64,000 bases of DNA, taken from contig JAXGQI010000001.1 of NCBI GenBank assembly GCA_040766525.1, positions 45,346 to 109,345 on the forward strand, in the 5' to 3' direction. Shown one piece after another: positions 198 through 58,815 of this stretch. The DNA comes from Clostridiales bacterium. Lineage in GTDB: Bacteria; Bacillota; Dehalobacteriia; UBA7702. Each line of letters begins with the position of its first letter. Position 1 is the first letter of the stretch. The notes under the pieces were generated by a model. It had not been told where the DNA came from, did no database searches, and was given only the letters and a program-made list of their open reading frames with translations. The translations under genes and the position numbers were made by a program.

Positions 198-1207
198 CTA
201 ACAAAACCTAACTGCTTCATTCCTCCTAAAAAATATTATATATTTGGCTATTTTGCCAAGGACTCGGATGGATTTTGGCCACATTCCGAAGCGCTGCCCT
301 TTAGAACTTCCAATCCATGTTCCAAAGGAGCAATGATAGCGGAAAAGGCTCTCCCGCACCGCTTTTGGGCTGCCGGGGAGATTGACGATCAAGGTTTGAT
401 TGCGGATCACCGATACCAGCACGGCTCAGCATCGCCCGATTGGTGTACTGCGAAGAATAGGCACGGATCGCCTCGGCAATGCCGGGAGCATTGCGGGTCG
501 CAACAGCGAGCGTCGCCTCCGGCGTACAATCCCGCGGGGAAAATCCGGTGCCACCTGTTGTCATGATCAAAATTCACTTGGCGTCCGTCAGCCAAGCGCA
601 TCAGCTCTATTTGAATGCGCTTTTGCACATCGGGCAAAAGCAGCATTTCTACGACTTCATAACCGTTTGCCTCTAAAATCTCTTTGACGGCGGGGCCGCT
701 TTCATCGACTCTTTCCCCTTCGGAGCCCTTATCGCTCAGGGTAACAATTGCTGCACGCAACGGAGCATTGGGATCACGGGGAATGGCGATCATCTCATCC
801 CCAACGGAAATACGCCCGCCTTGGATCACTTGGGCGAAAACCCCTTCCCTTGGCATAATGCAATCGCCCATCTTATGATAGATCTGACAATGGGAATGGC
901 ATTCCTTACCGATCTGGGTCATCTCCAGCAATACCTCGCCGCAGCGAAACATGGTTCCCACCGGCAAATTGCGAAAATCAAACCCTTCGACCACCAGGTT
1001 TTCCCCAAAGGCGCCGAAGTCCACCTCTGCGCCGCGTTTTCTAAATTCTTCAATTTTATCAAAGGAAAGCAAACTGACTTGACGATGCCACTTCCCCCGG
1101 TGCGCATCATTGGCGATGCCATTATCTACTTCAAATAAGGCCGTCCCGACATCTTGTTTCTGGACCCCTTTGGTTTCACTCACACAAACAGCTTTAACAA
1201 TACCCAC
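198..1207 (-). pseudogene. MOSC domain / MogA (MoaB) molybdopterin adenylyltransferase fusion, broken by two frameshifts in the MogA half (near 560 and 410)
   Basis: ORF 407..1207 has a MOSC domain and then a MogA start (AAIVTLSDKGSEG). MogA continues in ORF 301..570 (TTGGTGFSPRDCTPEATLAVA, AEAIR) and then ORF 198..422 (TLIVNLPGSPKAVRESL). Each MogA motif sits in a different frame. Confidence 0.7.
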
Positions 1208-1209
1208 GC

Positions 1210-2178
1210 TTATCCCCCTATCTGCGACATTGCCCGCGGTTCCTCCGCCACAATGCCGGTACGAAATTCATGCCTGAGCGGTTTTTTCAAAATCGCATCC
1301 CGCATCACCGCAACGACCGTATCATCAGCAGCACCGCTCCGCAAAAGATCACGCAGGCTCACGCCGTTATCGTGATAGAGACAGAGCTTAAAAAAGCCTT
1401 CACTGGTCAAGCGCACACGGTTACAGGTTGCACAAAAGTTATGGCTCATCGCATCGATAAAACCGATGCTCCCTATAAACGCATCACTCGTATAATAGCG
1501 GGCTGGGCCAAATCCTCTTTGTTGCCCGTCTTCTTCAAGATCCGGATATCCAGCCTTGATCATCTGATATACATCTTCGCCTTTGATGGGCGCAAAAAAC
1601 TGGCCGTACCCGATGGGCATCATTTCAATAAAGCGGACGTCCATGGGATAGGTTTTCGCCAATTCGGCAAGGGCCAGAAGCTGACCGCCGTTATGCCCTT
1701 CCAAAGGCACACAATTCAGTTTCACTTTAAATCCCAGCCGCAAAGATTCCAGTAATCCCTTCCAGGCTTGATCAAATTCGTCCCGTCCGGTGATCCCTTC
1801 ATAGATCTCCGGATCAAGGGCGTCCAAGCTGATATTAATCCCGTCAAGCCCGATTTCTTTTAAGCGCTCCAAATGCTGCTCTAACAATACGCCATTGGTC
1901 GTAAGGGTAACATGCTCAATCCCCGGTATCTTTTTTAAGGAGGCAATCAGATCAACACAACCCCGGCGCACCAAGGGCTCTCCGCCGGTCACTTTGAGAT
2001 GGCGAATGCCAAGCTTTGCCGCGGCTTCCGCAATCCGGACGATCTCTTCATAGCGCAAAATAGCTTCATGCGGGATGTAGGGCGGATCAGATGGCATGCA
2101 ATATTTACAGCGCAAATTGCATCTGTCGGTAACGGAAATGCGCATATATTCGATTTTCCGCTGATAAGAATCTATCAT
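1210..2178 (-). CDS. moaA: GTP 3',8-cyclase MoaA (radical SAM)
   Basis: CNLRCKYCMP radical SAM motif, GGEPL motif, MoaA C-terminal domain; 322 aa intact ORF. Confidence 0.9.
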   Translation of the reverse strand: MIDSYQRKIEYMRISVTDRCNLRCKYCMPSDPPYIPHEAILRYEEIVRIAEAAAKLGIRHLKVTGGEPLVRRGCVDLIASLKKIPGIEHVTLTTNGVLLEQHLERLKEIGLDGINISLDALDPEIYEGITGRDEFDQAWKGLLESLRLGFKVKLNCVPLEGHNGGQLLALAELAKTYPMDVRFIEMMPIGYGQFFAPIKGEDVYQMIKAGYPDLEEDGQQRGFGPARYYTSDAFIGSIGFIDAMSHNFCATCNRVRLTSEGFFKLCLYHDNGVSLRDLLRSGAADDTVVAVMRDAILKKPLRHEFRTGIVAEEPRAMSQIGG

Positions 2179-2191
2179 CGCTATCCCTTCC

Positions 2192-2680
2192 CTATCTTTC
2201 CCCAGGCGCTGCGTTCTCGATCAAGCCGCTTCTTCCCCCGGATTTTCTGCACAAATAGACAGACTCCATCACCATGGTTTTATCAATCGCTTTGCACATA
2301 TCATAAATCGTCAATAAAGCTACGGAAACGCCGGTTAATGCTTCCATCTCGACGCCGGTTTTTCCGATACACCGAACAGTACAGGTCGCTTCCACCGTAA
2401 GCGCTTCCTCAAATAATTCAAATGTGACCTCCGCCTTGGTAAGATTGAGCAAATGGCAAAGGGGAATCAATTCCGCCGTCTTTTTCGTCCCCATAATGCC
2501 TGCAAGCTGGGCTACTGCGAGCACATTGCCTTTTTTTACTCTTCCATCCCGAATCGCCTCAAAACATTCTTTGCTCACGCGAATGCGGCCCTTAGCGATA
2601 GCTTCACGCTCAGTATCCGCCTTGCTTCCCACATCCACCATGATCGCATTGCCGTCTTCATCAAAATGGGTTAATTCCAT
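2192..2680 (-). CDS. moaC: cyclic pyranopterin monophosphate synthase MoaC
   Basis: MoaC family similarity (LTHFDEDGNAIMVDV, IPLCH). The start is placed at MELTHF, which has a GGGGA RBS, not at the longer ORF start. Confidence 0.85.
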   Translation of the reverse strand: MELTHFDEDGNAIMVDVGSKADTEREAIAKGRIRVSKECFEAIRDGRVKKGNVLAVAQLAGIMGTKKTAELIPLCHLLNLTKAEVTFELFEEALTVEATCTVRCIGKTGVEMEALTGVSVALLTIYDMCKAIDKTMVMESVYLCRKSGGRSGLIENAAPGER

Positions 2681-2694
2681 CTTTATATCCCCAT

Positions 2695-3720
2695 TTACCA
2701 ACCCTTGTCGAATCCACATTGCGGGAAGGTACAGGTTGGGCAGGAAAGGCACAATCCCCCATGGCCCATGGCAGCAAGATCCTGCAAAGTAATGGGTTCA
2801 TTGGCCATTACCAAAGGCAAAACCAAATCGAAAACTGTGCGCTTCGCATACATCACACAACCGGGCAACCCTATGATCGGAACTCCCGTTTCCGTATAGG
2901 CCACCATCAGCATCGCCCCCGGGAGCACCGGCGCGCCATAGGAAATGACCTTCGCTCCCGTGTTCTTAATAGCGAGGGGCGTTTTATCATCCGGGTCGAC
3001 GCTCATACCACCGGTACATAAGATAAGCTCCGCCCCTTTATCCAATAATTCATTGATCGCAGCCGTGATCTTTTCATGATTATCATCCATAACGATATGA
3101 CCAATCAATTCCGTATCGTATTCCGCTATTTTTTCCTTGATCACCGGCGTGAAAGTATCTTTAATACGTCCATGATAAACTTCATTACCCGTCGTCACCA
3201 ATCCGACTTTCTTACTGACAAAAGGCTTCAAAGCGAGCAAAGATTCTTCCCCCGCAATGACTTTGGCCAACTGCAATTTTTCTTCCCGAATGGTGAGTGG
3301 AATCACCCGTGTGCCTGCCAGTTTGTCCCCTTTTTGAACAGGGAAATGACTGTGGCGGGTAGCAACCATAATTTCCCCCAGCGCATTGACGGCCTGCAAA
3401 CGATGGACGTCAACCAAAAAAAGGCCGTCGCATTCCGCGATCAGCTCAATCTTTCCTTCTTTCACCGGCGTAGGCCGCATATTCTCCCCGGCGCACATGC
3501 TGTACAAAATCTCCGCCGCTTCATTTTCGTGGAGCATGCCGGGTTCTTTTTCCCAAATATAAAGATGATCTTTCCCTAAGGAAAGTAAAACCGGGATGTC
3601 CTCTTCCGTTACGATATGGCCTTTACGGAAAGCTGCATCCTTCGTGACCCCTTTAACAATCTGCGTAATGTCATGACACAATACATGCCCTACCGCATCT
3701 TCCGTGCGTATCTGCTTCAT
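2695..3720 (-). CDS. MoeA-like molybdopterin-binding protein (MoCF_biosynth domain, Cys-rich C-terminus)
   Basis: CTGGMSVDPDDKTPLA MoCF-binding motif; MoeA N-domain-like region; terminal CLSCPTCTFPQC motif; 341 aa. Confidence 0.7.
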   Translation of the reverse strand: MKQIRTEDAVGHVLCHDITQIVKGVTKDAAFRKGHIVTEEDIPVLLSLGKDHLYIWEKEPGMLHENEAAEILYSMCAGENMRPTPVKEGKIELIAECDGLFLVDVHRLQAVNALGEIMVATRHSHFPVQKGDKLAGTRVIPLTIREEKLQLAKVIAGEESLLALKPFVSKKVGLVTTGNEVYHGRIKDTFTPVIKEKIAEYDTELIGHIVMDDNHEKITAAINELLDKGAELILCTGGMSVDPDDKTPLAIKNTGAKVISYGAPVLPGAMLMVAYTETGVPIIGLPGCVMYAKRTVFDLVLPLVMANEPITLQDLAAMGHGGLCLSCPTCTFPQCGFDKGW

Positions 3721-3810
3721 GAAGTCCCCTCCAATTACTGTGATCTACTGTATTTGCGCCAATCTCCGATAATCGAGATTTTTCCCATTTTTTCTTTTTA
3801 TTCTCGATTA

Positions 3811-3839
3811 AGTATAATTGATAGCTTCGGAAATGTCAA
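3811..3839 (-). promoter_or_regulatory. sigma-70 type promoter of the moeA-like/moaC/moaA/MOSC-mogA operon
   Basis: On the minus strand: TTGACA, 17 nt spacer, TATACT. A leader of about 90 nt follows before the ATG at 3720. Confidence 0.5.
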
Positions 3840-3885
3840 TAATTGTGGTCTCAAAAATATGAATTTGCACTCAATAAATTGGCAA

Positions 3886-3982
3886 AAAAACGGCAATTTC
3901 GCCATCTTTTCCAAAAGCGATCAATGCCAATTTCGGAAAGACAGATATAAAAAAAGCATTATCCATACGGATGATGCTTTAG
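3886..3982 (-). terminator. two tandem intrinsic terminators downstream of the AKR gene
   Basis: Minus-strand hairpins AAAGCATCATCCGTATGGATAATGCTTT plus a T7 run, and GGCGAAATTGCC plus a T7 run. Confidence 0.55.
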
Positions 3983-4031
3983 AATTATGTATCTTAATTA
4001 TTTCCCCTAAACCTTAACTATTTTATGGGTT

Positions 4032-5147
4032 TTAGCGTTCCAATGCCGCAGCGACAGTTTTCAAATGCTCTGTGATGGGAAGGTGCTGCGGACAATGCTC
4101 TTCACACTGGCGGCATTCGGTGCATTGAGAGGCTTTACCGAAGCGCTTTGCCAAATTCTCATAATAAGTGGCCGCAACCAACTTCTGCGTCTTTTCAAAG
4201 CGTTTTAAGTTATTGTAAATAGCGAAATACTCCGGGATCGCGATATTCTCCGGGCAACCATCCACACAATAGCGGCAGCCGGTGCAAGCAATCGCAATGC
4301 TCGAATTGATGATCTCGACAGCTTGTTTGATGATGTTCTCTTCTGTGGGATCGAGGGGCTTGAGATCCTGCATATTGCCCATATTATCCTCAAGTTGGGC
4401 TTGGTTGCTCATCCCGCTGAGGACAACCAGCACATTTTCCTTTGCGGCGGCGAAACGAAGCGCCCAAGAAGCAACGGATAAATCGGGATGATAGGCTTTG
4501 AAGAGCTTTTCGGCTTCAGCAGGGATATCGACGAGAGACCCCCCTTTCAGCGGCTCCATTACGATCACGGGCTTCCCATGTTTCGTTGCGATTTCATAGC
4601 ATTTTTCCGCTTCGATAATCGGATCGTCCCAGTCAATGTAGTTGATCTGCAACTGCACAAACTCCATCTGGGGATGCTTCGTCAAAATCTCGTCCAAAAG
4701 CTCTGCATTATCATGATAGGAAAGGCCGATGTTTTTGATCTTCCCTTCTCTTTTCTTTTGGACGACAAAATCGAAAGCCCCCAGTTCCTCCGATAAGAGA
4801 TAGGTCGGTTTCCCCAATCCGTGCAGCATGTAATAATCGAAAACTTCTACCCCCGTACGCTGGAGCTGTTCTTCAAAGATCTGGGGGATCTGTTCTTTCT
4901 CCCGAATCTGGAACATGGGGAGCTTGTCCGCAACGATATAAGCATCTCGCGGATAGCGTTTAACAACCCCTTCTCTGAAAGCAATTTCACTTGCCCCATA
5001 TGGTAGGGATAGGCGGTATCAAAATAGGTAAAGCCCTTTTCGATAAAATGCGTCCGCCATTTTATTGAATGCTTTTTGATCCACGCTGCCGAAATCCTTC
5101 GCATCCGTCAACGGCAAGCGCATCAAGCCAAAGCCTAACTTTTTCAT
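4032..5147 (-). pseudogene. aldo/keto reductase with a C-terminal Cys-rich ferredoxin-like domain; at least two frameshifts in the N-terminal third
   Basis: The AKR N-terminus MKKLGFGLMRLP is in ORF 5019..5234 and the FTYFDTAYPYH motif is in ORF 4847..5104. The rest is in 4032..4916 (DYYMLH, then two Cys clusters: CTGCRYCVDGCP and CTECRQCEEHCP). Confidence 0.7.
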
Positions 5148-5772
5148 AGTTCCTCCAATAGACATGATATCGGTATCCCCATCATACCCGATAATCTCCA
5201 TGGTGTAAAGCTGGCATAGCATATGTAAAATCAAGAACCGCTATTAGCAAATTATGACCTCGCCATCCCCCTGAACTACACACCAAATTCTTGAATATTT
5301 CACCACCTCAGGCCCCGGATTTGCGGCCTGGAAATAACAGCCTCTCAAATAGGTATAACAGAATCGGAACAAAATAACATCAGACTATTGATCTAGGCAA
5401 GATCCATCTAGATCATTATAATGGTAGCAGTTAAGTTTTCGGACATCGTTTGCACATAAAGCATTTGCTCGTCAAAAAACCACCTTACCATTGGCACGGT
5501 GGTCATTTGAATAAATGGCTCAAGTCTATATCCGACTCAATGTATACTGCCCCGACATAGTAATCGTCGCAAACATCAATTTCTTTTCCGTTGAGAAAAA
5601 ATATCCTAGTCACAGAGCCATCAACATCAACGAGCGCTTCCTTTTCTTCGATGGATGGAAACGCCTTTTAATTTTGGCAACCGCCATCAAAAAGGCGTCC
5701 AGGTTGTTGCCTGGATAAATATTATAATCAAATAATAACCTCATCACCTCATAGCCTAAAACCTTTATTATT

Positions 5773-6543
5773 TCTAATCATTGTTTTCACCAATATGCAG
5801 CAGCCGCATGATTTCCTTTTGCGCTTCCAAAACTCGGGCGGTAATGAAATCCTTGAAAGGACGGGGATCGCCTTTCTGTTGGTAATGCCGGATAGAATCA
5901 AGATATTCGGAACGGCACACCGGTGGATGATCGCCAGCTGATGGCCATCTTGAAGCAAAGCAAGATTCATAATAAGCCGGGCCGCCCGGCCATTACCATC
6001 AATAAATGGATGGATCGTCACCAGCTTTAGATGAAGCAGGGCGGCAAAGTCCACCGGGTGGGTTTGTCCTCGTTCGATCTTTGCCCATGCCTCCAACCGC
6101 TCCATTTCCTCTTCAATCTTCCCGGGAGCCGGAAAGACATACTCTGTTCCAGAAACAATCACATCCCGCTGTCTCCAAACACCGGCATTGGTTTCGTCAA
6201 TACCCTTATAAAAGAGCCAATGGAGTTTTTTCATCGTATCAATGGAAATACTCTTTTCACCAATCAGGGAAAACATATAGTCATAGGCTTCCCCATGGCC
6301 AACCGTTTCCATGAAATCCCGGAGCGGTTTCCCGCCGATAGTCAGCCCATCCTCCAAGACCACCTTGGTCTCGCTAATCGTTAAAGTATTCCCCTCAATG
6401 GCATTACTGGACCAAGTAAGACCAATTTTATAGTATTGCTTTATTTGACTCAATAATTCCCCTTCGAAGGGACGCTTTTGATCAATTAAAGCTTTTTTAT
6501 CACAATAGTTTGGTATATGTTCATGAGCGATTCTCCTCTCCAA
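5773..6543 (-). pseudogene. Fic family protein (putative AMPylator), with one frameshift near 5925
   Basis: HPFIDGNGRAARL Fic motif and an N-terminal SNAIEGN inhibitory-helix motif. After LAIIH the reading shifts; an alternative frame gives PPVCRSEYLDSIRHYQQKGDPRPFKDFITARVLEAQKEIMRLLHIGENND and then a stop. Confidence 0.75.
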
Positions 6544-6774
6544 TTAGCTCATACTGTTGGCTGCCAATCGTAACCGTACATTTATATACAGGGTTCTTTT
6601 TCTGTTCCTCTGTCATATCTTCTTCTTTATCACGGAGAGAAACGTTTATCTTAACTTCTTTGCCAGAAGATACAATTTGCAGGGTTTTTATAACGAAAAT
6701 AAAAAGCTATAGTTTTGCCGTTCTATGAGTTTGTCAAAATAAAAGCGACGTACTTGTTTAAGTATGGGATTACT

Positions 6775-7221
6775 TCATTCTCTTGTGAATATTGACTCTC
6801 TCTTTACCTCCAATTCAATTAGGTTCCCATTCCCCGTTTTATAATGAATAAAAAGTGCTTGAGGAGGCAAGTTAGTAGAGGTCTGAGACCAGATACCATT
6901 CTCAAGCGTAAAATCCAGGGGATCATCTCCCAAGCTACCCAAAATTATCCAATCAGAATCTGTAAAAAAAATAGCATCGATCTCAAGATATGGCCTATTA
7001 ACGTTTAATCGCGCATCTATTCTTAGTTTTTCATTTTGCTCCCTAAGTATCCAATTTTGATAAACAGTTACAGCTGCAAGGGTCATAGTCCCGATAAAAG
7101 TGAGTTCATTAGCAAACTCACACCCGGTGCATCGTAACAGTACTATCATTAGCAATATCGCTATTATTGATGCAACAAGTTTTATTTTATGTTCCATGAA
7201 GACCTCTTTCAAACTCAGCAC
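6775..7221 (-). CDS. hypothetical secreted/membrane-anchored protein
   Basis: ORF with an N-terminal hydrophobic segment (KLVASIIAILLMIVLL); no recognisable domain. The start may be the internal MEHKIK at 7197. Confidence 0.4.
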   Translation of the reverse strand: MLSLKEVFMEHKIKLVASIIAILLMIVLLRCTGCEFANELTFIGTMTLAAVTVYQNWILREQNEKLRIDARLNVNRPYLEIDAIFFTDSDWIILGSLGDDPLDFTLENGIWSQTSTNLPPQALFIHYKTGNGNLIELEVKRESIFTRE

Positions 7222-7575
7222 CCGGCATCAATAATACCAGGGAAAATAATGCAATGAGAAGGCGCTAATCATAACAATGGAGTGGACAGCTTTATTATGC
7301 GGTATCCGCTCGATAAAATCAAGAGAGGGAAGCAAGTTCCGCTCCTTTTCTTCACTCCAAAAATCAACCTCTCCGCCGATGAAGCAGCTGCCGAAGTATT
7401 GGAAAATATTCTCCATCCTGTTAAACAATAATCTGCATATATTTTAACCGTGCATTACCAGCAAAATATGAAAAAAATTAAAACTATTCCCAAACTACTC
7501 CCAAAAACCCTTAAATATACAACAAAACCAGAAAAACAAAACCCTGCCATAGTGTTCTATAGCAGGGATTTTTTA

Positions 7576-7650
7576 TGGAGCTACTGGCCGGATTCGAACC
7601 GGCGACCTGCGCATTACGGTGCGCTGCTCTGCCAGCTGAGCCACAGTAGC
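7576..7650 (-). tRNA. tRNA, probably Thr (CGU), with an unusual 6-nt anticodon loop (75 nt including CCA)
   Basis: The reverse complement folds as a cloverleaf: acceptor GCTACTG/CAGTAGC, D-arm GCTC-AGCTGGCA-GAGC, T-arm GCCGG-TTCGAAT-CCGGC, encoded CCA. The anticodon stem GCGCA/TGCGC encloses only CCGTAA; restoring one T gives CTCGTAA, anticodon CGT. Confidence 0.6.
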
Positions 7651-7712
7651 ATAGGGAAGGCGATTCTCCGACAAACGGAGAAAATACTGCCTTTTTGCAC
7701 GGCCTTTTACGG

Positions 7713-7892
7713 TTATTCCGTTTTGACGCGCCCCTTAATTTTATACTTTATCCTTCTTGCCGTCAAGCGTTTTTTCTTCTTTTCTCTTAATTTCTCTATA
7801 GCGGCTATTCTCCGGAAAATCCTCCGTACTTCATCGATTTCCGCTTTCGTTAGATACGCTTTCGGGATACTGAAGCTCTTCTTTCCCGACAT
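7713..7892 (-). CDS. small basic hypothetical protein
   Basis: 60-aa Lys/Arg-rich ORF (MSGKKSFSIPKAYLTKAEIDEVRRIF); no family assigned. Confidence 0.3.
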   Translation of the reverse strand: MSGKKSFSIPKAYLTKAEIDEVRRIFRRIAAIEKLREKKKKRLTARRIKYKIKGRVKTE

Positions 7893-8596
7893 GTCCAAAA
7901 GCAAAACATTCTCATCTTCAAAGGAAAGCGCACGAAGGTCATTTCTGATCGGGACAACGCCTTTTCCGGGTACGAGAATACGACCGTCCTTATAACTTCA
8001 CCTGGAAGCGGCTCTTCATCCGTTCAACATCCGCTGCCGTTTTTTGCGGCGCCGAGCGGGAAGAATGGTAATCATCGGAATAAAAGCACGCATAGGCCCA
8101 TCATCCAAAGATAGTTCACATTAAAGGAAACAATAAATGCATAGACGCAAAAAGCCGCTAAAAATACAATGATTGCGATATTGAAAAAACGAAAACGCTT
8201 CATCCGCTCATCCAAAAGCATGAGAGATGAGTAAGCCTGGTCATAATCCATCATATAATCCAGATCAATCACCAGTTCACCATGTTCATCCTTCCCCGTT
8301 CTTTTCCGAGGAGTTTCTAAAGAGACCGGCGGGTTCCTCCTCGACTTCCTCCTTCACGCTTGCCTTCACCGGGGTCGAAACCATCTCGGAATCGCCGGAT
8401 TGCACTTGCCAAGGTTTATCAGGGAGAGTTGCCGTTTCATTCATCCTATTCTCATCGTCCATGGTACACCTCCTCACTATGTTACCACTATTATAACATA
8501 AATCCATTTTTCGGCAAAACCATATTTTCGAAATAATTCGCCCAGTATAAGGTGATAATGACGAAATTGCACGATTTGGGGCACATAAAAAAACAT

Positions 8597-8625
8597 TTGA
8601 CATTTAGCAAAAAAGCTGCTAATAT
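8597..8625 (+). promoter_or_regulatory. sigma-70 promoter (TTGACA-17-TAATAT) driving the riboswitch leader and the dapB-like gene
   Basis: Perfect -35 hexamer at 8597..8602, a 17 nt spacer, then TAATAT at 8620..8625. Confidence 0.6.
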
Positions 8626-8644
8626 ATCAACATAACATCGTGCT

Positions 8645-8775
8645 GAATATCTATTTTTATAGATAACGGGAGAACCAATCTTTTGGGGTGTATCCGATTT
8701 TATCGGAGGGAATCTTCAATCCCTAACCCGTCAGCTAATCTCGTAAGCATTTGAAGGGGAGTTATTCTCTGATTT
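8645..8775 (+). ncRNA. c-di-AMP riboswitch (ydaO/kimA class) in the leader of the dapB-like gene
   Basis: The 5' element ACGGGAGAACC...TTGGGGTG and the 3' element CCCTAACCCGTCAGCTAATCTCGTAAGCA...GAAGGGGAG match the remembered ydaO consensus (ACGGGGAGCC ... AACCCGxCAGCUAACCUCGUAAGC). Internal hairpins CCGATTTTATCGG and GGGAATCTTCAATCCC are present. Confidence 0.65.
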
Positions 8776-8779
8776 TTGA

Positions 8780-8812
8780 TGCGCGCACATGTTATGTGGG
8801 CGCATTTTTGTC
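8780..8812 (+). terminator. intrinsic terminator (riboswitch expression platform) just upstream of the dapB-like RBS
   Basis: GCGCGCACAT-GTT-ATGTGGGCGC hairpin followed by TTTTTG. Confidence 0.6.
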
Positions 8813-8847
8813 GTTGATTTTAATTTTCGAAGAAAGGAGTCTTTTCT

Positions 8848-9711
8848 ATGAAAATTGCTTTATGCGGTTTGGGAAAGGCCGGTAAAGAAGTGGCGCTGGC
8901 ATTACAAAAAAGAATGGATTTAGAATTGGTCTGTGGTCTTTGTCGCGACAACAGCACTGCCAGCAAAAAAACGATGGGTGAAATTTTCAATCTGCCTGAT
9001 CTTGAGCTGCCCGTCTACGAAATAAAGGATGCAAAACTGGCATTTGCCCTCCATCGCCCCGATGTAGTCATTGATTTCTCATCGAAGGAAGCGACTTTGA
9101 GGTTATTGCCTCTTTTAGTGGATCAGCAGGTATCCATCGTGATATGCACTACCGGTTTTACGCCGGAAGAACTTATGAACCTGCAAAACTATGGTAAAAA
9201 TAAAGGGATCGCCGTGGCGTACACCCCCAATGTTACCATCGGTATCAATGTAATGATGAATCTTGCCGCCATTGTTGCGCAATGTCTGCCCCATTTTGAT
9301 TATCAAATTACTGAAATGCATCATAGCAAAAAGGCAGACCCGGTTTCCGGCACCGCCTATAAAATCGAAGAGGCCTTGCTGAAAAATCTCCCGGAAGACA
9401 AAGAATCGATTCCCATCAATGCCGTTCGCGCCGGGGGTTATATCGGTTACCATGAGGTTTTGTCTGTAGGGCAAAACGAACGAATTACGATCGTGCACGA
9501 ATCCTTTTCTCGACAAGCTTTTGCTGACGGAGCCATTTTAGCCGCCGAGTTCATCCAAGAAAGAGCCGGTTATTTTGAAATGGCTGAAATCGTGCAAAAT
9601 TATCTGAATGACAAACCCTATCATGAGGTGGAAACAGAAGATGCGTCGAAGGTCAAACACATCGAAGAGATCAAGCATCATACCGTCAAAAAAGATTCGG
9701 CAATCAGCTAA
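8848..9711 (+). CDS. dapB: 4-hydroxy-tetrahydrodipicolinate reductase-like protein (DapB family) with a C-terminal extension
   Basis: GLGKAGKEV NAD(P)-binding start and EMHHSKKADPVSGTA catalytic motif; 287 aa; RBS AGGAG. Confidence 0.7.
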   Translation: MKIALCGLGKAGKEVALALQKRMDLELVCGLCRDNSTASKKTMGEIFNLPDLELPVYEIKDAKLAFALHRPDVVIDFSSKEATLRLLPLLVDQQVSIVICTTGFTPEELMNLQNYGKNKGIAVAYTPNVTIGINVMMNLAAIVAQCLPHFDYQITEMHHSKKADPVSGTAYKIEEALLKNLPEDKESIPINAVRAGGYIGYHEVLSVGQNERITIVHESFSRQAFADGAILAAEFIQERAGYFEMAEIVQNYLNDKPYHEVETEDASKVKHIEEIKHHTVKKDSAIS

Positions 9712-9741: not shown

Positions 9742-9778
9742 AAAGATGCCTGTGTATTCACACAGGCATCTTTATTTT
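9742..9778 (+). terminator. intrinsic terminator after the dapB-like gene
   Basis: AAAAGATGCCTGTGTATTCACACAGGCATCTTT followed by a T run. Confidence 0.6.
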
Positions 9779-9801
9779 TCACTTATACGCTTTTTTCTCT
9801 T

Positions 9802-11160
9802 TTACTCTTTTTTATCCGATGCTTCCCCAACATTTTCTTGGCACTGATTCTTCATCACATACATCCGATCATCGGCAATCCGCATAACCGTATTAAAATC
9901 ATGCCCCTCTTTCGGGAAAACGGCTTGGCCGATGCTAACAACGATGGGGATCTTATGCTCTTGATATCTGAATTCCTGCGCAAGATCTTTCTCCATCTGT
10001 TTACTAATCCTATCTATTTCCTCAGCGGTGTCCAAATGGCTAAAGACAACAAGGAACTCGTCTCCGCCCAATCTAAAGATCGCACCCTGCTTCCAGTACA
10101 TCCTCGTCAATTCATTCGCGATATGCTTTAAGACCTCATCGCCAACATGATGGCCATAATGATCGTTGATCGATTTGAACCGATCCACATCTAAAACAAT
10201 GATCCCAATGAACTTATCTTTGTTATAGATATTGAAAATATTTTCCTCATAATAGTCCAAATAGCGCCGATTGAAAAGATTGGTCAAACCGTCAATATTA
10301 GCTTGTTTTTTCACTTGGATGTTTTTCTGATGACTGTAAGCGAATAAGACACCGAAAATCAGGGAAAACAAAATCGAAATGACATAAAACGCCGGCATAA
10401 TCTGGTCAATCAGATCATCATGTTTCGCGGAAATCGCCAAGATATATGAAGAATCGAAAAACTGATCGTTTCGGTGATATGGTCATCATCGACGATGGCG
10501 GGATCACTAAAAAATCAAACTTCGGGCTTCATCATTTTTGTACATCGCGACATTTAAATCCCTGAAGCTCTGGCGTATTGCAGGAAAACACTGTTCACCT
10601 CGTCCGCTTTTAAGACGATACTGATTTGCCCCCAATACTCACCTTCCGAGATAAACGGCGCGCGGGCGATATACCCCTTCCCACCCTGTACCAAATCAAT
10701 AGGACCGATAAAACCGGCTCCAGAGTTTCCTTCACTTTCAAGATACTATCTCTGTTCGATTCCACTTTGGCCAAATCCACATTGATGACGGTCAGCTTCT
10801 TCCTCTGGATAAACGAACAGCATCGTGGTATCTTTGATAATGCCGATATTTAAAATCAACTCATCTTCTTCCAGAAGAGTATCCAAATACACTACGGTCA
10901 ATTCATCCGATAAGGTTTTGGATACTTTCTCCAAGGAGATGATATAGGCTTGATAACCTTTCAAAAGATTTAGTTTGGATTTTATCGTCTCTTCAAAAAA
11001 ATTTGCAACATCATTGACATTTTGCATCGCATTAATATTGTCTTTTTGTTTTTGAACTTGATCGTCGTGTATGTAATCGCATAAAATAGATGAACATACG
11101 ATAAAAATAATAATCCCGTAGATAACCGATTTGTAGAGCGACTTTTTCATTACATCTTTC
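9802..11160 (-). pseudogene. TM / dCache-like sensor / TM / GGDEF diguanylate cyclase, broken by at least 3 frameshifts between 10440 and 10600
   Basis: ORF 10746..11300 gives TM1 and a periplasmic domain. The continuation GPIDLVQGGKGYIARAPFISEGEYWGQISIVL and NVAMYKNDEARSLIF lie in other frames. Then comes TM2 (MPAFYVISILFSLIFG) and the GGDEF domain (RLGGDEF) in ORF 9802..10440. Shifts fall at A6 and T6 runs. Confidence 0.7.
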
Positions 11161-11510: not shown

Positions 11511-14100
11511 TTATTCCTTGATTTCCGCCACATTTTCACTTTCTTCTTCCAAAATTCGAACAAAAACCCCCACGACGCGGGGATCAAATTGGGAACCGGA
11601 ACAACGCCATAATTCTTTGATGGCGTCTTCGTCATTCAATGCCTCTCTATAAGGCCGATCCGCGGTAATCGCATCATAGGTGTCCGCCACCGCCAAGATT
11701 CTTGACTGGATAGGGATTTCTTCACCCTTTTGGCCGTTCATATATCCTTTTCCATCCCATCTTTCATGATGATGCAACACAACCTCGGCAATCCCCCTAA
11801 ACTCCTGGCTGCTGCCAAGAATGCGCCAACCGATTTCGGCATGGGTTTTGATAATATCATATTCTTCAGTCAGAAGTCTCCCCGGCTTATTCAAAATTCT
11901 TTCCGGAATACCGATCTTGCCGATATCGTGGAGCAGTCCCGCTAATTTGATCTCATCAATCACATTCCGCTCCAGCCCCAAAGCAATCGCTACTTTCTCC
12001 GCGATAATACTTACGCGGCGGGAATGTTCCATTTCCCGCTTACTCTTTGCAAACAAAGCATTCATAACAAGCAGCACCGATTGATTCCGAATGCTGTGAA
12101 CTTGCATCATTTTACGGCGGAACATGTAATCCTCCGCCTCGGTCAAAACTTCTTCCAATTTTTTATCCGGGTCAGACTTGGTTTGGAATCCCAGTGAAAC
12201 AGACACTTGATATTGATCCGATAAATGCTTTTGCTCTGCGATTTTGACCCGTTCGATCATCTCGAGGGCTTCTTTATCACCGCAATTTGGCAGGATAACG
12301 CCGAATTCATCTCCCCCGATTCGGGCGACGGTATAGGAATGCCGGGTGGATTTCTTCAAAATTTTAGCTACGCTCTTCAAAATCTTGTCTCCCACCTGAT
12401 AACCGAAAATATCATTGGCGGTTTTCAACCCGTTCACATCGCCGACAATCACCGCATACGGCAATTTCTTCGTTTTTTCCAACCGCGCCAATTCACTTTC
12501 AAAATACCGGCGATTATATAAACCGGTCAAATAATCATGATCGCTGATATAGCGTATCTCCTCATAGGCCTTTTCTCTTTCCGTAACATCGAAAATAATA
12601 GAATAGAGCAGCGTTTCGCCATCGAAATTGATCGGGCAGGAATACACGTCCACCGTTCGAAGCTCACCGGTTTTCAGACGATGCGGAAAGGTAAAATATT
12701 TCTGTCCTTTTTTTAGGGCTTTCATCCGCAGCCGCGCAATCTCAGCTTCATCCAAAGTATTGATATCTTGAATCGTCATATGGAGCAGTTCATCCTTAGA
12801 ATAGCCGTAATAGGCAGACGCCGCCGGATTGCAGTCCCGGATCTTGCCCGTTAACGGCTCGAGCAACAACATAACGGCCTCATGGCCGTTAAACATCGCT
12901 TCCATTTGATGGGCCAGCGCTTCCGCCTTCAACTGGCTGTTTTTATTCTCCACGGCCAACCAAACGCCGTTCATCAGCATGATCATCTCATAAACATCGG
13001 CGTCGTCATAATCGAAATCCTTGTTCCCGAACCCCACCACGGCAACGATCTTATTATCGACAAACATGGGGATCGACATATATCGTTTTAAAGGGATATG
13101 CCCCACGGGGAATCCTCTTTTGGCCGGATTGGGTTGTTCAAAATCATTGATGATGAGGGGTTTCCGATAGCGAACAACATCCCCCCAAATACCGGTATTT
13201 TCTAATTTATATTCCGTTTTCTGATCTTTAACAGCACAGGCATCAAGCACTCGTTTGTCCAAGCGTGGTTAGTAAATTCCTTTTGTTTTCATCATAAAAG
13301 AAGATATAACCGTATTTCGGACTTTTGTCAATTCCAAAAGCTTCTGTAGGCATACCCAAGCTGATCTTGGGTATTTTCAAAGTCTCTCAGCAAGCATCCG
13401 GTAATGATGCGATTCCGCTCCGCAAACTTCGGATCTGCTCTTCCCGCTGCTTCTCCTGGGTGATATCGCGAATATAGGAGCCGACCCCAATTTTATCGTT
13501 GCCAATGGGAACAGGGAATTTTACTGCTTCATATCTACTCTCTCCTATCGCCTCATAAAAGACAAGGGTCTCATTTTTCCGCAATACTTCCTGATCACTT
13601 CTGCGGCACTCCGCAGCGGCCGCTTGGGGCAATAATTCGAAATCGGTTTTACCGATCAAACTCTCCATATCCTGTTGAAAAAACTCCGCGACTTTTTGAT
13701 TGGAAAGAACAACGCGAAACCGATCATCTTTCAGAAGGATCATGGATTGGCTGGCATTGATATATTTTTCATACTTTTTTCTTTTTTGGATCAGCTCATT
13801 TTCAAATGCCTTTTTCTTCTGTGATATCTTGGCAGAATCCCAGATAACGATCTTCCTCAATTTTTCTGGTATTGACCACAACCCAACGCACTTCTCCTGC
13901 CTTTGTACAATAACGGGTTTCATGTGCAGTACCGCCACCAGTATCAATGATCGTATTGGCGTACCGGTGATTTTTGCATATCCTCAGCAACAAAAGATCC
14001 AGGATATTCATTTGCCTTAATTCCGCCTCTGTATATCCTGTAAGTCGGCACACTGCAGTATTGATATCCAAGCACTGTCCACTACCATTAACTAAAAAAC
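11511..14100 (-). pseudogene. large PAS-PAS-GAF-PAS-GGDEF-HD-GYP c-di-GMP signalling protein, interrupted by several frameshifts
   Basis: ORF 11511..13262 holds the GAF C-terminus, a PAS domain, GGDEF (RIGGDEFGV) and HD-GYP (HHERWDGKGY). ORFs 13387..13947 and 13802..14071 are PAS domains in other frames. The GAF N-terminus lies between 13262 and 13387. Confidence 0.65.
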
Positions 14101-15262: not shown

Positions 15263-15340
15263 TCGGGCTTTACGCCCAACATATGGGGAAGGTCCGTTAT
15301 AATGTAAAGACGATGCTGCTCTGTCCCTTCCCCAAACCAA

Positions 15341-16808
15341 TTACTTTAAACCGTATTCTTCCTTTGCTTCTTCAATGATGTCTTGGAAACCGGCTTCTAC
15401 TCCGGGAGCCAAAGCGGGAACTTTGTGGCTCGCCAAAATTCTGGCAGCTTCCGCATAGGCTCTTTCCGCCAGATCGGTTTTCCCTTCCAATTCCCAAGTT
15501 TCTCTCATTGTACGGCAGAACAATTTGCTCGTGCTCTGTTCTTTGCGGAACCGTTCAAAGGTATGGGGATGGCTGACCATTTCCCCACCGGGACCCACTT
15601 CTTTGATCAAATCAACAGCCAGATTATCATCGGTGATCTTGATCCCTGCGATAACCCGTTTAATCATCGTATAAATCTCATTATCGATGACCAATTGGGC
15701 AAAGTCGAAGGTAATCCCCAGATCCAACATCCCCGCGCCGTAAATCAAGTTAGCGCCACCCTGGGCAGCTAAAAGAGCGGTCAATGTTTTTTCATGGGCT
15801 GCTTGGCCATCAGGAACTTTGCTGTCTGCCTAACCACCCGCTACGAAACTGGGCAGTTTATAGAATTGGGCCAAACGAGCAACGGAAGCGCTGATCATCC
15901 CCAATTCCGGAGCGCCTACCGGCGCCGTGGTATAACGCATATCCATAATCGTGGTGGAACTTGCATAGATGCAGGCCGCACCCTTCTTCGTCAATTGTGA
16001 AAGCACAATAACGCTAAGAACTTCGGCATTATGGGTAGCCAAGGTCCCCGCCAAGGTGACGGGAGAAGTAGCACCCGCCATCGCCATGGAAATAATATTG
16101 ATTGGAATACCCGCTTCCGCCGCCAACATCACGACGTCGGTGCATTCGGGAATCAGCTTTAATAAACTGGTGGGGCAAACATTAAAGGTAATCAGGGGGC
16201 GGCGCTTTAATTCTTCTTCGCCACCGGCAACCAAAGCAGCCATACGGATGATTTTCGCAGCATTCACGGCTCCATCAGGCCCGATAAAAAAGTGCTTGGT
16301 CGTATTAGGAAAATCGCTTCCGCATTGTGCAGAGCTTGAATCGGTCCGGGAATATCCTGGGAAGCGACAGCACGATAAGTGATATCCAAATTATCCAAAT
16401 AATCGCTTAATATGGCGGCATTTTTAAATCCTGTTTGGTGCTGGGACGATACTCTTCGTTTCCATATCGCGAACGACAACACCTTCACCGAAATTCACAA
16501 AACCGACCCGGTTCTTTTCAACGATATAATCTTTTTCAGGATCTCTTTGCGGCCAATAACTGATGGCGGCGCAGTCTTCACCGCGTCTTCCACAATATAG
16601 GAAGGGATGCGAACAATATGGGTTTTCGGGTCAACGACGCAGCCACCCGCCGCAAATCTTCCCGTGCTTCAACGCTGTCAACCCGAACGCCTACATTATA
16701 CAGAATATCAAGAGACGCCAAATGGATCGTTTCTAACTCATCTTGAGAGTAGCCAACGATACCGAAACTTCCTAAACCGTTAAAAACAGCCTGTGTGTTT
16801 CTACTCAT
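15341..16808 (-). CDS. mttB: trimethylamine:corrinoid methyltransferase MttB with an in-frame amber (UAG) codon at the conserved pyrrolysine position; the N-terminal half has about 4 apparent frameshifts
   Basis: C-terminal 290 aa are one frame. Plus-strand 15830..15832 is CTA, giving TAG on the minus strand, in the context [32 protein letters not shown]. The MttB motifs [32 protein letters not shown] and [19 protein letters not shown] are present. The N-terminus ([23 protein letters not shown]) and the middle pieces (ORFs 16578..16838 and 16264..16488) are in other frames. Confidence 0.75.
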
Positions 16809-16861
16809 ATTCTCCTCCTTTGTACATTTTCTTTGCAATTTTTACTACACGCATACTAATT

Positions 16862-58399: not shown

Positions 58400-58487
58400 A
58401 ATATTTATTTTGCTTTTGAATTCATATTACGGTATTGCCAAAAAATGCAAAAATAGCCACTACCCTACCCAGGAGAACTATCAAATC

Positions 58488-58620
58488 CGGCAGGTCTACC
58501 GACTGAACTTCATCCTACTCGGAAACCTTCCCATGCCCAAAGAGCACAGTGGTCATTATCCTTTCGTCCGTATCACGGTTGCTGGGACAGTACGGGATTT
58601 CCCGTTTCCCTATTAAGCAA
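58488..58620 (-). ncRNA. cobalamin (B12) riboswitch
   Basis: The minus strand reads AATAGGGAAACGGGAAATCCCGTACTGTCCCAGCAACCGTGA ... GACCACTGTGC (B12 box) ... GGGAAGG ... GATGAAGT ... AGTCGGTAGACCTGCCGG. This matches the remembered cobalamin riboswitch consensus. Confidence 0.8.
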
Positions 58621-58815
58621 ATGCACCGAATCACTATTTTTTTACAATTATAAACAAGTGTCCAAAAAAAATCAAGTCTTATTTGCTCTTTTTTTCAATA
58701 AGGCGGCGAAAAATGCAAATAATCAAACGCAGGTAAAATTTCACCACCCGCTAATGAGCCCCAGGAGATACGCTTCAATACGCAGGGGAAATCGTCTGCT
58801 GTTAATTCCAAATCC

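Follow-up and report, generated by a model that had tools for sequence, protein, structure and literature searches.

A c-di-AMP-class riboswitch precedes a DapB-family gene of a distinct clostridial clade, with a possible link to osmolyte synthesis

Organization of the dapB-like locus

The DNA examined here is a 64,000-nucleotide stretch from a Clostridiales bacterium (referred to as 'the window'), in which a dapB-like gene on the forward strand is preceded by a promoter and a structured leader. The features of the locus, in 5' to 3' order, are:

8597..8625 (+): sigma-70-type promoter, with −35 TTGACA (8597–8602), a 17-nt spacer with TG, and −10 TAATAT (8620–8625); 10 of 12 consensus matches
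8631..8764 (+): full-length aptamer of a c-di-AMP riboswitch (RF00379; ydaO/kimA class), from Rfam cmscan
8756..8769 (+): small linker hairpin, GGGGA/UUCUC, between aptamer and terminator
8778..8810 (+): intrinsic terminator forming the expression platform; GC-rich stem of 12 bp containing a single G-G mismatch, 3-nt loop, then UUUUUGU
8833..8839 (+): ribosome binding site (RBS) AAAGGAG, 8 nt 5' of the ATG; read from the sequence, and invariant in relatives
8848..9711 (+): dapB-like gene, encoding a 287-aa 4-hydroxy-tetrahydrodipicolinate reductase family protein; core residues 1–249, tail residues 250–287
9742..9779 (+): terminator 3' of the dapB-like gene, with a 14-bp stem and T-run, shared with a convergent GGDEF gene

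A scan for promoters was not significant when taken alone (4 sites versus 3.4 expected). The near-consensus site listed above lies 6 nt 5' of the aptamer, and all four close relatives share its −35 hexamer but vary in the −10 element (TAATAT, TAACAT or TATTAT); these observations agree with the original prediction that a promoter lies ahead of the riboswitch. The next gene downstream is the GGDEF gene, at 9802–10440 on the minus strand. Given the terminator at 9742–9779, the dapB-like unit is monocistronic.

The leader contains a full-length c-di-AMP-class aptamer

A search of the whole window with Rfam cmscan returned a single match to RF00379, at 8631–8764 on the plus strand, which scored 94.8 bits (gathering score 38; E-value 4e-21). 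The match covers positions 1–134 of the 134-position model, with 0 non-canonical pairs flagged. The aptamer occupies the 5'-UTR on the coding strand, beginning shortly after the end of the promoter at position 8625 and well ahead of the ATG at 8848. Its helix P1 pairs 8641–8644 with 8747–8750. The first conserved half (ACGGGAGAACC...GGGGTG) corresponds to 8667–8692 and the second (AACCCGTCAGCTAATCTCGTAAGC) to 8726–8749, so that the ydaO/kimA riboswitch with both conserved halves described by the original prediction, and the RF00379 match proposed there as its check, were both recovered. Two well-conserved positions are substituted (GGGGUGUAUCC and CCCUAACCC), the first of which is common to 9 of 65 related aptamers. 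The same cmscan of the whole window gave no match to the Na+-I aptamer (RF03071). At the level of sequence and model match, we regard the RNA upstream of the dapB-like gene as confirmed to be a genuine c-di-AMP-class riboswitch (RF00379).

The founding member of this family, the Bacillus subtilis ydaO (kimA) riboswitch, is a genetic OFF switch, and shares with the window leader a pseudo-two-fold aptamer followed by an intrinsic terminator. OFF behavior has been described for the class (PMC9337991), and a Dehalobacter c-di-AMP riboswitch was shown by experiment to follow an OFF design, with <5% read-through in the presence of ligand (PMC9337991). The tested Dehalobacter tandem, an ablA leader, has its c-di-AMP aptamer followed by its own terminator, as in the window. 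By analogy with these characterized members, we infer that the window riboswitch responds to c-di-AMP and does so with OFF logic.

The expression platform

The hairpin at 8778–8806 has a predicted folding energy of −19.9 kcal/mol (z = −4.4), with 0/200 shuffled sequences equally stable; it was overlooked by a simple terminator scan because of its one G-G mismatch. The terminator is kept in close relatives, four of which have leaders 88% identical to that of the window. An intrinsic terminator before the RBS had been predicted from the sequence, and its presence holds, although the spacing given for it does not (the U-tract ends ∼23 nt before the RBS, rather than 35). In the relatives L001 and L003 an equivalent of the linker hairpin occurs, its stem bases altered (GGAGAT...ATCTCT).

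Two segments of the aptamer are candidate anti-terminator partners for the 5' arm of this terminator: 8684–8694 (−11.7 kcal/mol) and the 5' P1 region at 8634–8652 (−10.4 kcal/mol), the latter with a core pairing of 8635–8643 with 8785–8792. Unlike most relatives, the window leader yielded no well-defined anti-terminator, as the best RNAduplex pairing was no better than that of shuffled arms (z = −0.9). This pairing is also weak by comparison with that of B. subtilis ydaO. Among 48 related leaders with the aptamer-then-terminator layout, 33 have a terminator 5' arm whose best complement is the 3' strand of the aptamer (CGUAAGCGCAU), an arrangement that matches the OFF design demonstrated for the Dehalobacter riboswitch (PMC9337991).

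The riboswitch-gene pairing is widespread among relatives

We sampled 80 species-level genomes carrying a relative of the window protein. RF00379 was found directly upstream of the dapB-like gene in 62 of them, all from different species; these occur in every major clade of a neighbor-joining tree, with the riboswitch lost in one clade. A terminator platform is present in about three quarters of the riboswitch-bearing leaders. In most of the 18 riboswitch-less relatives, a simple TTGACA promoter is followed by a short leader; Rfam scans of seven of the 18 in E-value mode gave no hidden riboswitch, and L058 and L063 retain only a degenerate riboswitch remnant.

The pairing that the original prediction considered unusual is therefore the rule in this group, and it has been published: White et al. 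(2022; PMC9337991) described tandem Na+-I/c-di-AMP riboswitches on dapB in Acetivibrio cellulolyticus and Pseudobacteroides cellulosolvens, and proposed a link from dapB through lysine to osmoprotectants. Those systems have in common with the window the aptamer class, the annotated gene and the osmotic-stress/lysine rationale. They differ in possessing a Na+-I aptamer, whereas the window has a single c-di-AMP riboswitch; the exact tandem layout does occur in one of our relatives, L057. The pairing is thus conserved in many Clostridia and already in print, with the window locus adding another member. The target of B. subtilis ydaO is a K+ or amino-acid transporter, whereas that of the window is a biosynthetic enzyme. 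The pairing gives such an enzyme a firm place among the genes governed by c-di-AMP riboswitches in Clostridia.

The encoded protein belongs to the DapB family

The protein scored 165.4 bits against TIGR00036, the NCBIfam dapB equivalog (HTPA reductase, EC 1.17.1.8), for which the cut-off is 122, and matched both DapB_N (PF01113; 84 bits) and DapB_C (PF05173; 113 bits), in keeping with its earlier assignment to this family. An AF2 model (pLDDT 89.4) was compared with the PDB using Foldseek, and the top 50 matches were all DapB, with E-values down to 4e-24. One candidate assignment, to 2,4-diaminopentanoate dehydrogenase or another DapB_N-only family, was rejected (NF040740 gave just 17.7 bits against a cut-off of 400).

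Comparison with E. coli DapB (PDB 1arz/1dih; 30% identity) indicated a common two-domain fold (TM about 0.78) with conservation of the His-His-Lys set, the SGTA carboxylate-binding loop and Arg240. Residues H158, H159, K162, S167-G168-T169 and R222 correspond in the alignment to E. coli H159, H160, K163, S168-G169-T170 and R240. The catalytic H-H-x-x-K and S-G-T-A residues are thus kept in the window protein, and the catalytic and substrate positions are invariant or nearly so across its clade. The D-x-P-SGTA motif reads D-P-V-SGTA in the window protein. The doubt raised by the original prediction, that this might not be a true DapB, finds no support in the equivalog score, the retained catalytic residues or the uniformly DapB structural matches.

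Several features set the protein apart from its E. coli counterpart. The dinucleotide-binding loop is glycine-rich in a variant form, GLGKAG (GxxGRMG in E. coli). The position of E. coli E38, at the end of beta-2, is occupied by a cysteine (Cys32) that is invariant in the clade, and the window protein, like most of the clade, retains R39 (as R33). Together, the GLGKAG loop and Cys32 suggest, from sequence, an altered cofactor preference rather than a loss of binding; Cys32 would predict that NADPH is preferred. The loop following SGTA is ∼13–17 residues shorter than in E. coli DapB, and a 38-aa C-terminal tail is added. A C-terminal extension had been predicted and is present; it is longer than the ∼25 aa first suggested, with ∼38 aa (residues 250–287) lying beyond DapB_C. 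Variable tails are common in the clade, and that of the window protein is lineage-specific and under purifying selection. In contrast to the E. coli gene, the window gene is riboswitch-regulated and stands alone.

We considered whether the protein, despite its DapB fold, is no HTPA reductase and instead reduces some other cyclic imine or keto acid so as to make or modify a compatible solute. Cys32 replaces the Glu38 that binds the NADH ribose in E. coli DapB, the motifs GLG(K/R)AG (in place of GxxGRMG), PN(V/I)T and HESFSR are likewise invariant in the clade, and the stress-type regulation, the variable tails and the lack of dap context would also suit such a role. We nevertheless consider this hardly probable at all: every substrate-binding and catalytic residue known from E. 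coli DapB is conserved, the E-x-HH-xx-K-x-D-x-PSGTA motif occurs unaltered in most of the clade, the score exceeds a curated equivalog cut-off, and no other fold family appeared among the structural matches. The sequence evidence instead points to HTPA reductase (DapB) activity.

A rare clade and a probable paralog

Only 33 of about 5,000–9,000 DapB-family clusters matched the window protein at E ≤ 1e-30, and the clade-specific motifs were found in only 278 of 185,579 species genomes. By these sequence criteria the protein is a member of a small, distinct clostridial DapB clade. In the flanks of its relatives the gene never adjoins dapA, asd or lysA. Canonical DapB is of the GxxGRMG (or GKMG), SPNMS and HRAHSR type, and its gene commonly lies with dapA or asd.

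These observations bear on whether the gene might be the sole housekeeping DapB of its host, with c-di-AMP merely modulating lysine/DAP synthesis. The protein passes the dapB equivalog cut-off, and a search of six-frame translations of the 64-kb window and of the relatives' loci, using an HMM built from the clade, found no second DapB homolog, as such a role would have it. To our knowledge, DapB is near-universal in DAP-pathway bacteria, and the rarity of this clade, both among species genomes and among DapB clusters, fits poorly with a housekeeping function; so does the consistent absence of the gene from dap, asd or lys operons. We also reason that an OFF switch governed by an essential and normally present messenger would be ill suited to a sole essential enzyme. 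We therefore regard a sole housekeeping role as highly improbable, and the gene is probably a paralog. The 'dapB' genes located behind c-di-AMP riboswitches constitute a separate, rare clade and are probably not the housekeeping enzyme, a distinction that White et al. did not draw (PMC9337991). Some caution in annotation is warranted, in that a TIGR00036 match behind RF00379 is probably a stress-induced paralog. As a separate observation, the sole extra match of the clade HMM search was one frameshifted dapB-like copy in the relative L051.

Association with ablA and ablB

The ablA gene encodes lysine 2,3-aminomutase and ablB encodes beta-lysine acetyltransferase, which together yield N-epsilon-acetyl-beta-lysine. 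In 3 of the 80 relatives, the riboswitch-controlled dapB-like gene heads an operon with one or both of these genes. In L050 (Clostridium homopropionicum), the riboswitch is followed by the dapB-like gene, ablA (TIGR03820; 622 bits versus a cut-off of 525) and ablB (TIGR03827; 266 versus 205). In L057, tandem Na+ and c-di-AMP riboswitches (with the Na+-I aptamer, RF03071, at 3633–3686 of that locus) precede the dapB-like gene, ablA, ablB and a DarA-like gene. In L068 (C. chromiireducens), the order is riboswitch, dapB-like gene, ablB and a ClC exchanger, and the locus adjoins nhaA under a Na+ riboswitch. Such dapB-ablAB operons were not reported by White et al. (PMC9337991).

Outside these three genomes the dapB-like gene stands alone, and neither ablA nor ablB is present in the 64-kb window, where the gene is monocistronic. 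All-against-all BLAST clustering of ∼8 kb around each relative revealed clade-specific synteny only, with no neighbor shared across clades. The association with ablAB thus holds for the clade, and an osmolyte role in the window genome would follow by analogy with the three abl operons.

A model for stress-induced lysine supply

We consider it reasonably probable that the locus combines a c-di-AMP-OFF riboswitch with an extra DapB whose lysine is drawn toward N-epsilon-acetyl-beta-lysine under K+ or osmotic stress. The unit would consist of a promoter, a c-di-AMP riboswitch, an intrinsic terminator and a monocistronic DapB paralog. At high levels of c-di-AMP (K+ plentiful and no osmotic distress), the ligand would bind the aptamer and lock helix P1, the hairpin at 8778–8806 would form, and transcription would halt before the gene (the OFF state). 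When c-di-AMP falls, upon K+ shortage or hyperosmotic stress, strands of the aptamer could instead pair with the terminator's 5' arm, allowing RNA polymerase to read through and the enzyme to be made. The enzyme would most likely serve as a stress-induced extra copy of DapB, increasing the flow toward tetrahydrodipicolinate and lysine; AblA and AblB could then turn this lysine into N-epsilon-acetyl-beta-lysine, a compatible solute. The abl operons in three genomes make this model concrete, joining low c-di-AMP to increased lysine flux and its withdrawal into the osmolyte; for the window itself the osmolyte role is one of association, since the gene stands alone in all other relatives and there is no abl gene in the window. 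If correct, the model would extend c-di-AMP control from osmolyte uptake to the synthesis of osmolyte precursors.

DapB acts upstream of meso-diaminopimelate, and the original prediction had tied the riboswitch to peptidoglycan precursor supply. On such a reading, a fall in c-di-AMP would call up extra DapB to help build or remodel the cell wall, together with hydrolases under riboswitch control. Some of the evidence is in accord with that rationale: c-di-AMP riboswitches commonly control cell-wall remodelling genes, and White et al. named peptidoglycan as one rationale for dapB (PMC9337991). Wall-related genes also lie near the dapB-like gene in some relatives, including an NlpC/P60 gene in L089, putative genes of the D-Ala-D-Ala carboxypeptidase type located downstream of it in the Ruminiclostridium clade, and a predicted M14-like peptidase and a YkuD L,D-transpeptidase adjoining the genes of the riboswitch-less clade. 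However, these neighbors are confined to single clades, on the opposite strand or under separate promoters, and none recurs across clades; the relatives' loci show no linkage to murE, dapF or any other gene for peptidoglycan precursors, and ablA and ablB are the only partners seen to share a transcription unit with the gene. The abl operons in the three relatives therefore favor lysine supply for an osmolyte over the peptidoglycan rationale (for the window, by inference only), and we judge the latter to be unlikely.

Lysine might alternatively be an end in itself, with the paralog raising free lysine that, as a cationic solute, partly replaces scarce K+ when c-di-AMP is low. Positively charged amino acids, including lysine, rescue B. 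subtilis grown without added K+ (PMC5573677), c-di-AMP signals K+ availability (PMC8822347), and in most relatives the gene is monocistronic, with no ablAB nearby. Yet adaptation in B. subtilis proceeds via synthesis of arginine and ornithine rather than lysine, and, in the genomes with ablAB operons at least, lysine would seem to undergo further conversion; we consider this explanation decidedly unlikely.

A bolder variant of the favored osmolyte model, which seems to us very unlikely, is that the clade is a dedicated osmostress enzyme on which Cys32, the altered cofactor loop and the conserved lineage-specific tails confer a new property. Such a property might be a change of cofactor or of substrate, or control exerted directly by K+, c-di-AMP or a DarA-type receptor, in which case c-di-AMP would control an unrecognised compatible-solute branch at both the RNA and protein levels.

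A parallel to the stress-induced extra DapB of the favored model may be found in Ask_Ect, a specialised aspartokinase encoded in ectoine gene clusters under osmotically controlled promoters. The logic appears alike, in that an enzyme of general amino-acid metabolism is duplicated and the added, stress-regulated version, located among osmolyte-synthesis genes or controlled as they are, would secure the precursor of an osmolyte. The two cases differ in enzyme, pathway step and osmolyte, and the Ask_Ect system, unlike the window locus, has no second-messenger riboswitch.

A c-di-AMP riboswitch heads a single-gene transcription unit

Scanning the entire window with Rfam returned RF00379 as its sole c-di-AMP riboswitch match (94.8 bits against a gathering score of 38, E = 4e-21), spanning 134 of 134 model positions with no non-canonical pairs flagged. 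We conclude that the element is a bona fide RF00379 member. The original prediction, of a ydaO-class riboswitch controlling a DapB-like gene, had cited two conserved sequence blocks that are both present in the window leader, and its finding is real and was correctly identified. The unit comprises the following features:

8597–8625 (+): promoter, TTGACA-17-TAATAT with upstream TG, 6 bases 5′ of the aptamer
8631–8764 (+): c-di-AMP riboswitch aptamer (RF00379, Rfam scan)
8756–8769 (+): short linker hairpin, 3′ of the aptamer
8778–8806 (+): GC-rich terminator hairpin (−19.9 kcal/mol), then UUUUUGU
8833–8839 (+): ribosome binding site AAAGGAG, 5′ of the ATG
8848–9711 (+): dapB-like ORF, ATG at 8848
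9742–9779: downstream terminator, strong hairpin and T-run, 3′ of the dapB-like gene

None of 200 shuffles was as stable as the terminator hairpin at 8778–8806 (z = −4.4). The unit is judged to be monocistronic because of the downstream hairpin and T-run and a convergent GGDEF protein gene (9802–10440, minus strand). Across four close relatives the entire leader is 88% identical to that of the window, with the −35 hexamer, aptamer, linker hairpin, terminator and ribosome binding site kept and the −10 hexamer variable. A tRNA gene lies on the opposite strand, a few hundred bases to ∼1 kb 5′ of the riboswitch, in the window (7579–7650) and in three not very close loci from other genomes (L001, 2105–2177; L023, 3463–3535; L028, 3487–3559).

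The gene product is a predicted DapB from a distinct clade

The 287-residue product carries DapB_N and DapB_C domains and scores 165.4 bits against the NCBIfam equivalog TIGR00036 (cut-off 122). It is 30% identical to E. coli DapB (using a reference sequence 100% identical to PDB 1arz), and the catalytic and substrate residues H159, H160, K163, S168-G169-T170 and R240 of that enzyme are kept as H158, H159, K162, S167-G168-T169 and R222. Its closest solved relatives are DapB without exception. When an AlphaFold model (37 homologs, mean pLDDT 89.4) was used as a Foldseek query against the PDB, all 50 of the top 50 matches were DapB. By every computable criterion, the protein is a predicted HTPA reductase.

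Its sequence also places it in a distinct, atypical clade of the DapB family. Invariant features of this clade include GLG(K/R)AG in place of GxxGRMG, a cysteine (Cys32) at the position of the NADH-ribose-binding Glu38 of E. coli, and the motifs PN(V/I)T and HESFSR. When 1.84 billion cluster representatives were searched with HMMER, 8,991 proteins matched at E ≤ 1e-3, 5,049 at E ≤ 1e-10 and only 33 at E ≤ 1e-30; the canonical motifs GxxG(R/K)MG, SPNMS and HRAHSR were seen in the weaker matches. Scanning 185,579 species (one genome each) with clade-specific peptide motifs identified 278 relatives, the best 80 of which were analysed as loci.

A C-terminal extension does exist as predicted, although it is ∼38 residues long (250–287) rather than ∼25. 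In the AlphaFold model this tail is predicted with low confidence except for a short helix (270–276). Many clade members have tails, 0–45 residues long and unrelated in sequence, and the window type is found only in the three closest homologs (82–85% identical overall). Its last 21 codons contain 6–10 synonymous and 3 non-synonymous differences, an excess similar to that in the core (88:33), which argues that the tail is a real and selected feature.

The riboswitch pairing is the rule for this clade

A c-di-AMP riboswitch on ‘dapB’ has already been published, in tandem form (PMC9337991); beyond that report, we found no publication linking the two in the literature searched. We add that the pairing is the rule for this specific DapB clade, that two kinds of expression platform occur within it, and that the gene is sometimes the first of an ablAB operon.

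Of the 80 relatives, 62 carry RF00379 in the same orientation immediately 5′ of the gene (84–110 bits, gathering threshold). The close homologs L001, L003 and L004 have it as well, and on a neighbour-joining tree it occurs in every major clade. It has been lost in the sister clade to that of the window, which has a plain promoter and short leader. Rescanning seven riboswitch-less loci with Rfam in E-value mode revealed no sub-threshold match.

Members of the riboswitch-less sister clade (L007, L009, L011, L013–L015, L017, L019 and L048) share a promoter-like block, TTGACAA...TACGTTAAGCTAAAA, within the upstream 260 nt. The gene upstream encodes an M14-like peptidase, judging from sequence, and L017 also has a YkuD L,D-transpeptidase gene on that side. 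Two loci (L058, 3300–3556; L063, 380–640) retain only a degenerate aptamer remnant (AACCTGTCAGCTAAT...) below any threshold, suggesting either a decaying riboswitch or a divergent variant. Five aptamers (L043, L051, L061, L070 and L081) extend to 160–221 nt, with insertions of 30–90 nt relative to the 134-nt model, yet score 84–91 bits. In L051 the dapB-like gene (3998–4873) is broken into two ORFs, by frameshift or assembly error; its riboswitch, with a large insertion, is still good (90 bits). Other RNA elements nearby include a c-di-GMP-I riboswitch in the flank of L010 (633–717, minus strand) and, in L054, L071 and L080 (∼3280–3575, minus strand), T-box leaders of a divergent ∼800-residue gene that adjoins the c-di-AMP riboswitch on its upstream side.

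Two kinds of expression platform

As in the window, a terminator lies 3′ of the aptamer in roughly three quarters of the related leaders. Sixteen leaders of one clade (L030, L045, L049, L052, L054, L056, L060, L062, L064, L067, L069, L071, L072, L075, L080 and L082) have no terminator and an aptamer-to-gene gap of only 73–86 nt. About ten of them have a helix of the type CCAATC...GATTGGAGG over the Shine-Dalgarno sequence, and this suggests translational rather than transcriptional control; a scripted search from aptamer end to ATG did not find a helix of this type in the others.

The best complement of the 5′ arm of the terminator hairpin is the aptamer 3′ strand (CGUAAGCGCAU) in 33 of 48 terminator-type leaders, and the 5′ strand of the closing helix P1 in seven of the 48. 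These pairings fit the mutually exclusive design described and tested for the Dehalobacter c-di-AMP riboswitch, where read-through was <5% with c-di-AMP (PMC9337991). Anti-terminator pairing is weak in the window and in the relatives nearest to it, with two candidates: 8684–8694 with the arm (−11.7 kcal/mol), and the 5′ P1 region 8634–8652 with the arm (−10.4 kcal/mol). The core of the latter (8635–8643 with 8785–8792; 8 bp, one bulge) is present in the minimum free energy fold of the transcript minus the terminator 3′ arm. Neither candidate is better than shuffled controls, and so for the window switch we infer OFF logic from riboswitch class and layout.

Genomic context and possible role

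The window neighbours (a tRNA, a Fic protein, GGDEF and HD-GYP signalling proteins and a pyrrolysine-type mttB) provide no functional clue. The dapB-like gene nearly always stands alone, its recurring neighbours reflect clade-specific synteny only, and dapA, asd or lysA is adjacent to it in no relative examined. No second DapB was found in the 64-kb window or in any relative's flank examined. Three indirect arguments favour an extra DapB copy: the clade is rare, the gene is absent from dap operons, and repression by an essential messenger would suit a sole essential enzyme poorly.

Three relatives depart from this solitary arrangement. In L050 (Clostridium homopropionicum), ablA (lysine 2,3-aminomutase; TIGR03820, 622 bits versus 525) comes 28 nt beyond the riboswitch-controlled dapB-like gene, and next comes ablB (beta-lysine N-acetyltransferase; TIGR03827, 266 bits versus 205). 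In L057 (3633–7413), a Na+-I riboswitch (57 bits) and a c-di-AMP riboswitch (100.5 bits) in tandem head a four-gene operon of dapB-like, ablA, ablB and a small gene for a DarA-like c-di-AMP receptor (108 residues; 123.6 bits, slightly under the 140-bit cut-off), a receptor thus encoded within a c-di-AMP-riboswitch operon. In L068 (C. chromiireducens), ablB comes 55 nt beyond the dapB-like gene, with a ClC-type exchanger (ClcA-like, with a TrkA-C-like C-terminal region) next to it, within a salt-stress island (1043–7592) that runs nhaA (under a Na+ riboswitch, 2356–2411, minus strand), a GGDEF gene, c-di-AMP riboswitch, dapB-like, ablB and exchanger; ablA is absent from the 8.7 kb covered around the locus.

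The compatible solute N-epsilon-acetyl-beta-lysine is produced from lysine by AblA and AblB. The simplest reading of these gene orders is that the DapB clade would be a stress-induced isozyme securing lysine for this solute. White et al. suggested a dapB-lysine-osmoprotectant link for two tandem-riboswitch cases (PMC9337991), for which the three operons offer direct genomic support; the functional lead is modestly new and not a surprise. For the window locus there are two alternatives: the enzyme may supply meso-DAP to the cell wall, as originally proposed, or lysine itself may be used in place of K+, in line with its rescue of B. subtilis growth when no K+ is added (PMC5573677).

The c-di-AMP-controlled gene of the window is flanked by genes of c-di-GMP signalling, one for the convergent GGDEF protein and one for a GAF-PAS-GGDEF-HD-GYP protein (11511–13262, minus strand). 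L050, L057 and L068 likewise have GGDEF genes close to the dapB-like gene on its 5′ side.

Other elements in the window

The mttB gene (pyrrolysine-type trimethylamine methyltransferase; 15340–16810, minus strand) has an in-frame TAG and a PYLIS_3 element (15733–15832, 92.4 bits). It would be either a pseudogene or affected by indel sequencing errors, because its first ∼140 codons are spread across three reading frames. A long gene cluster on the minus strand (∼44.3–58.3 kb), which includes a 1240-residue ORF, has a cobalamin riboswitch (58472–58644, minus strand, 88.4 bits) on its upstream side.
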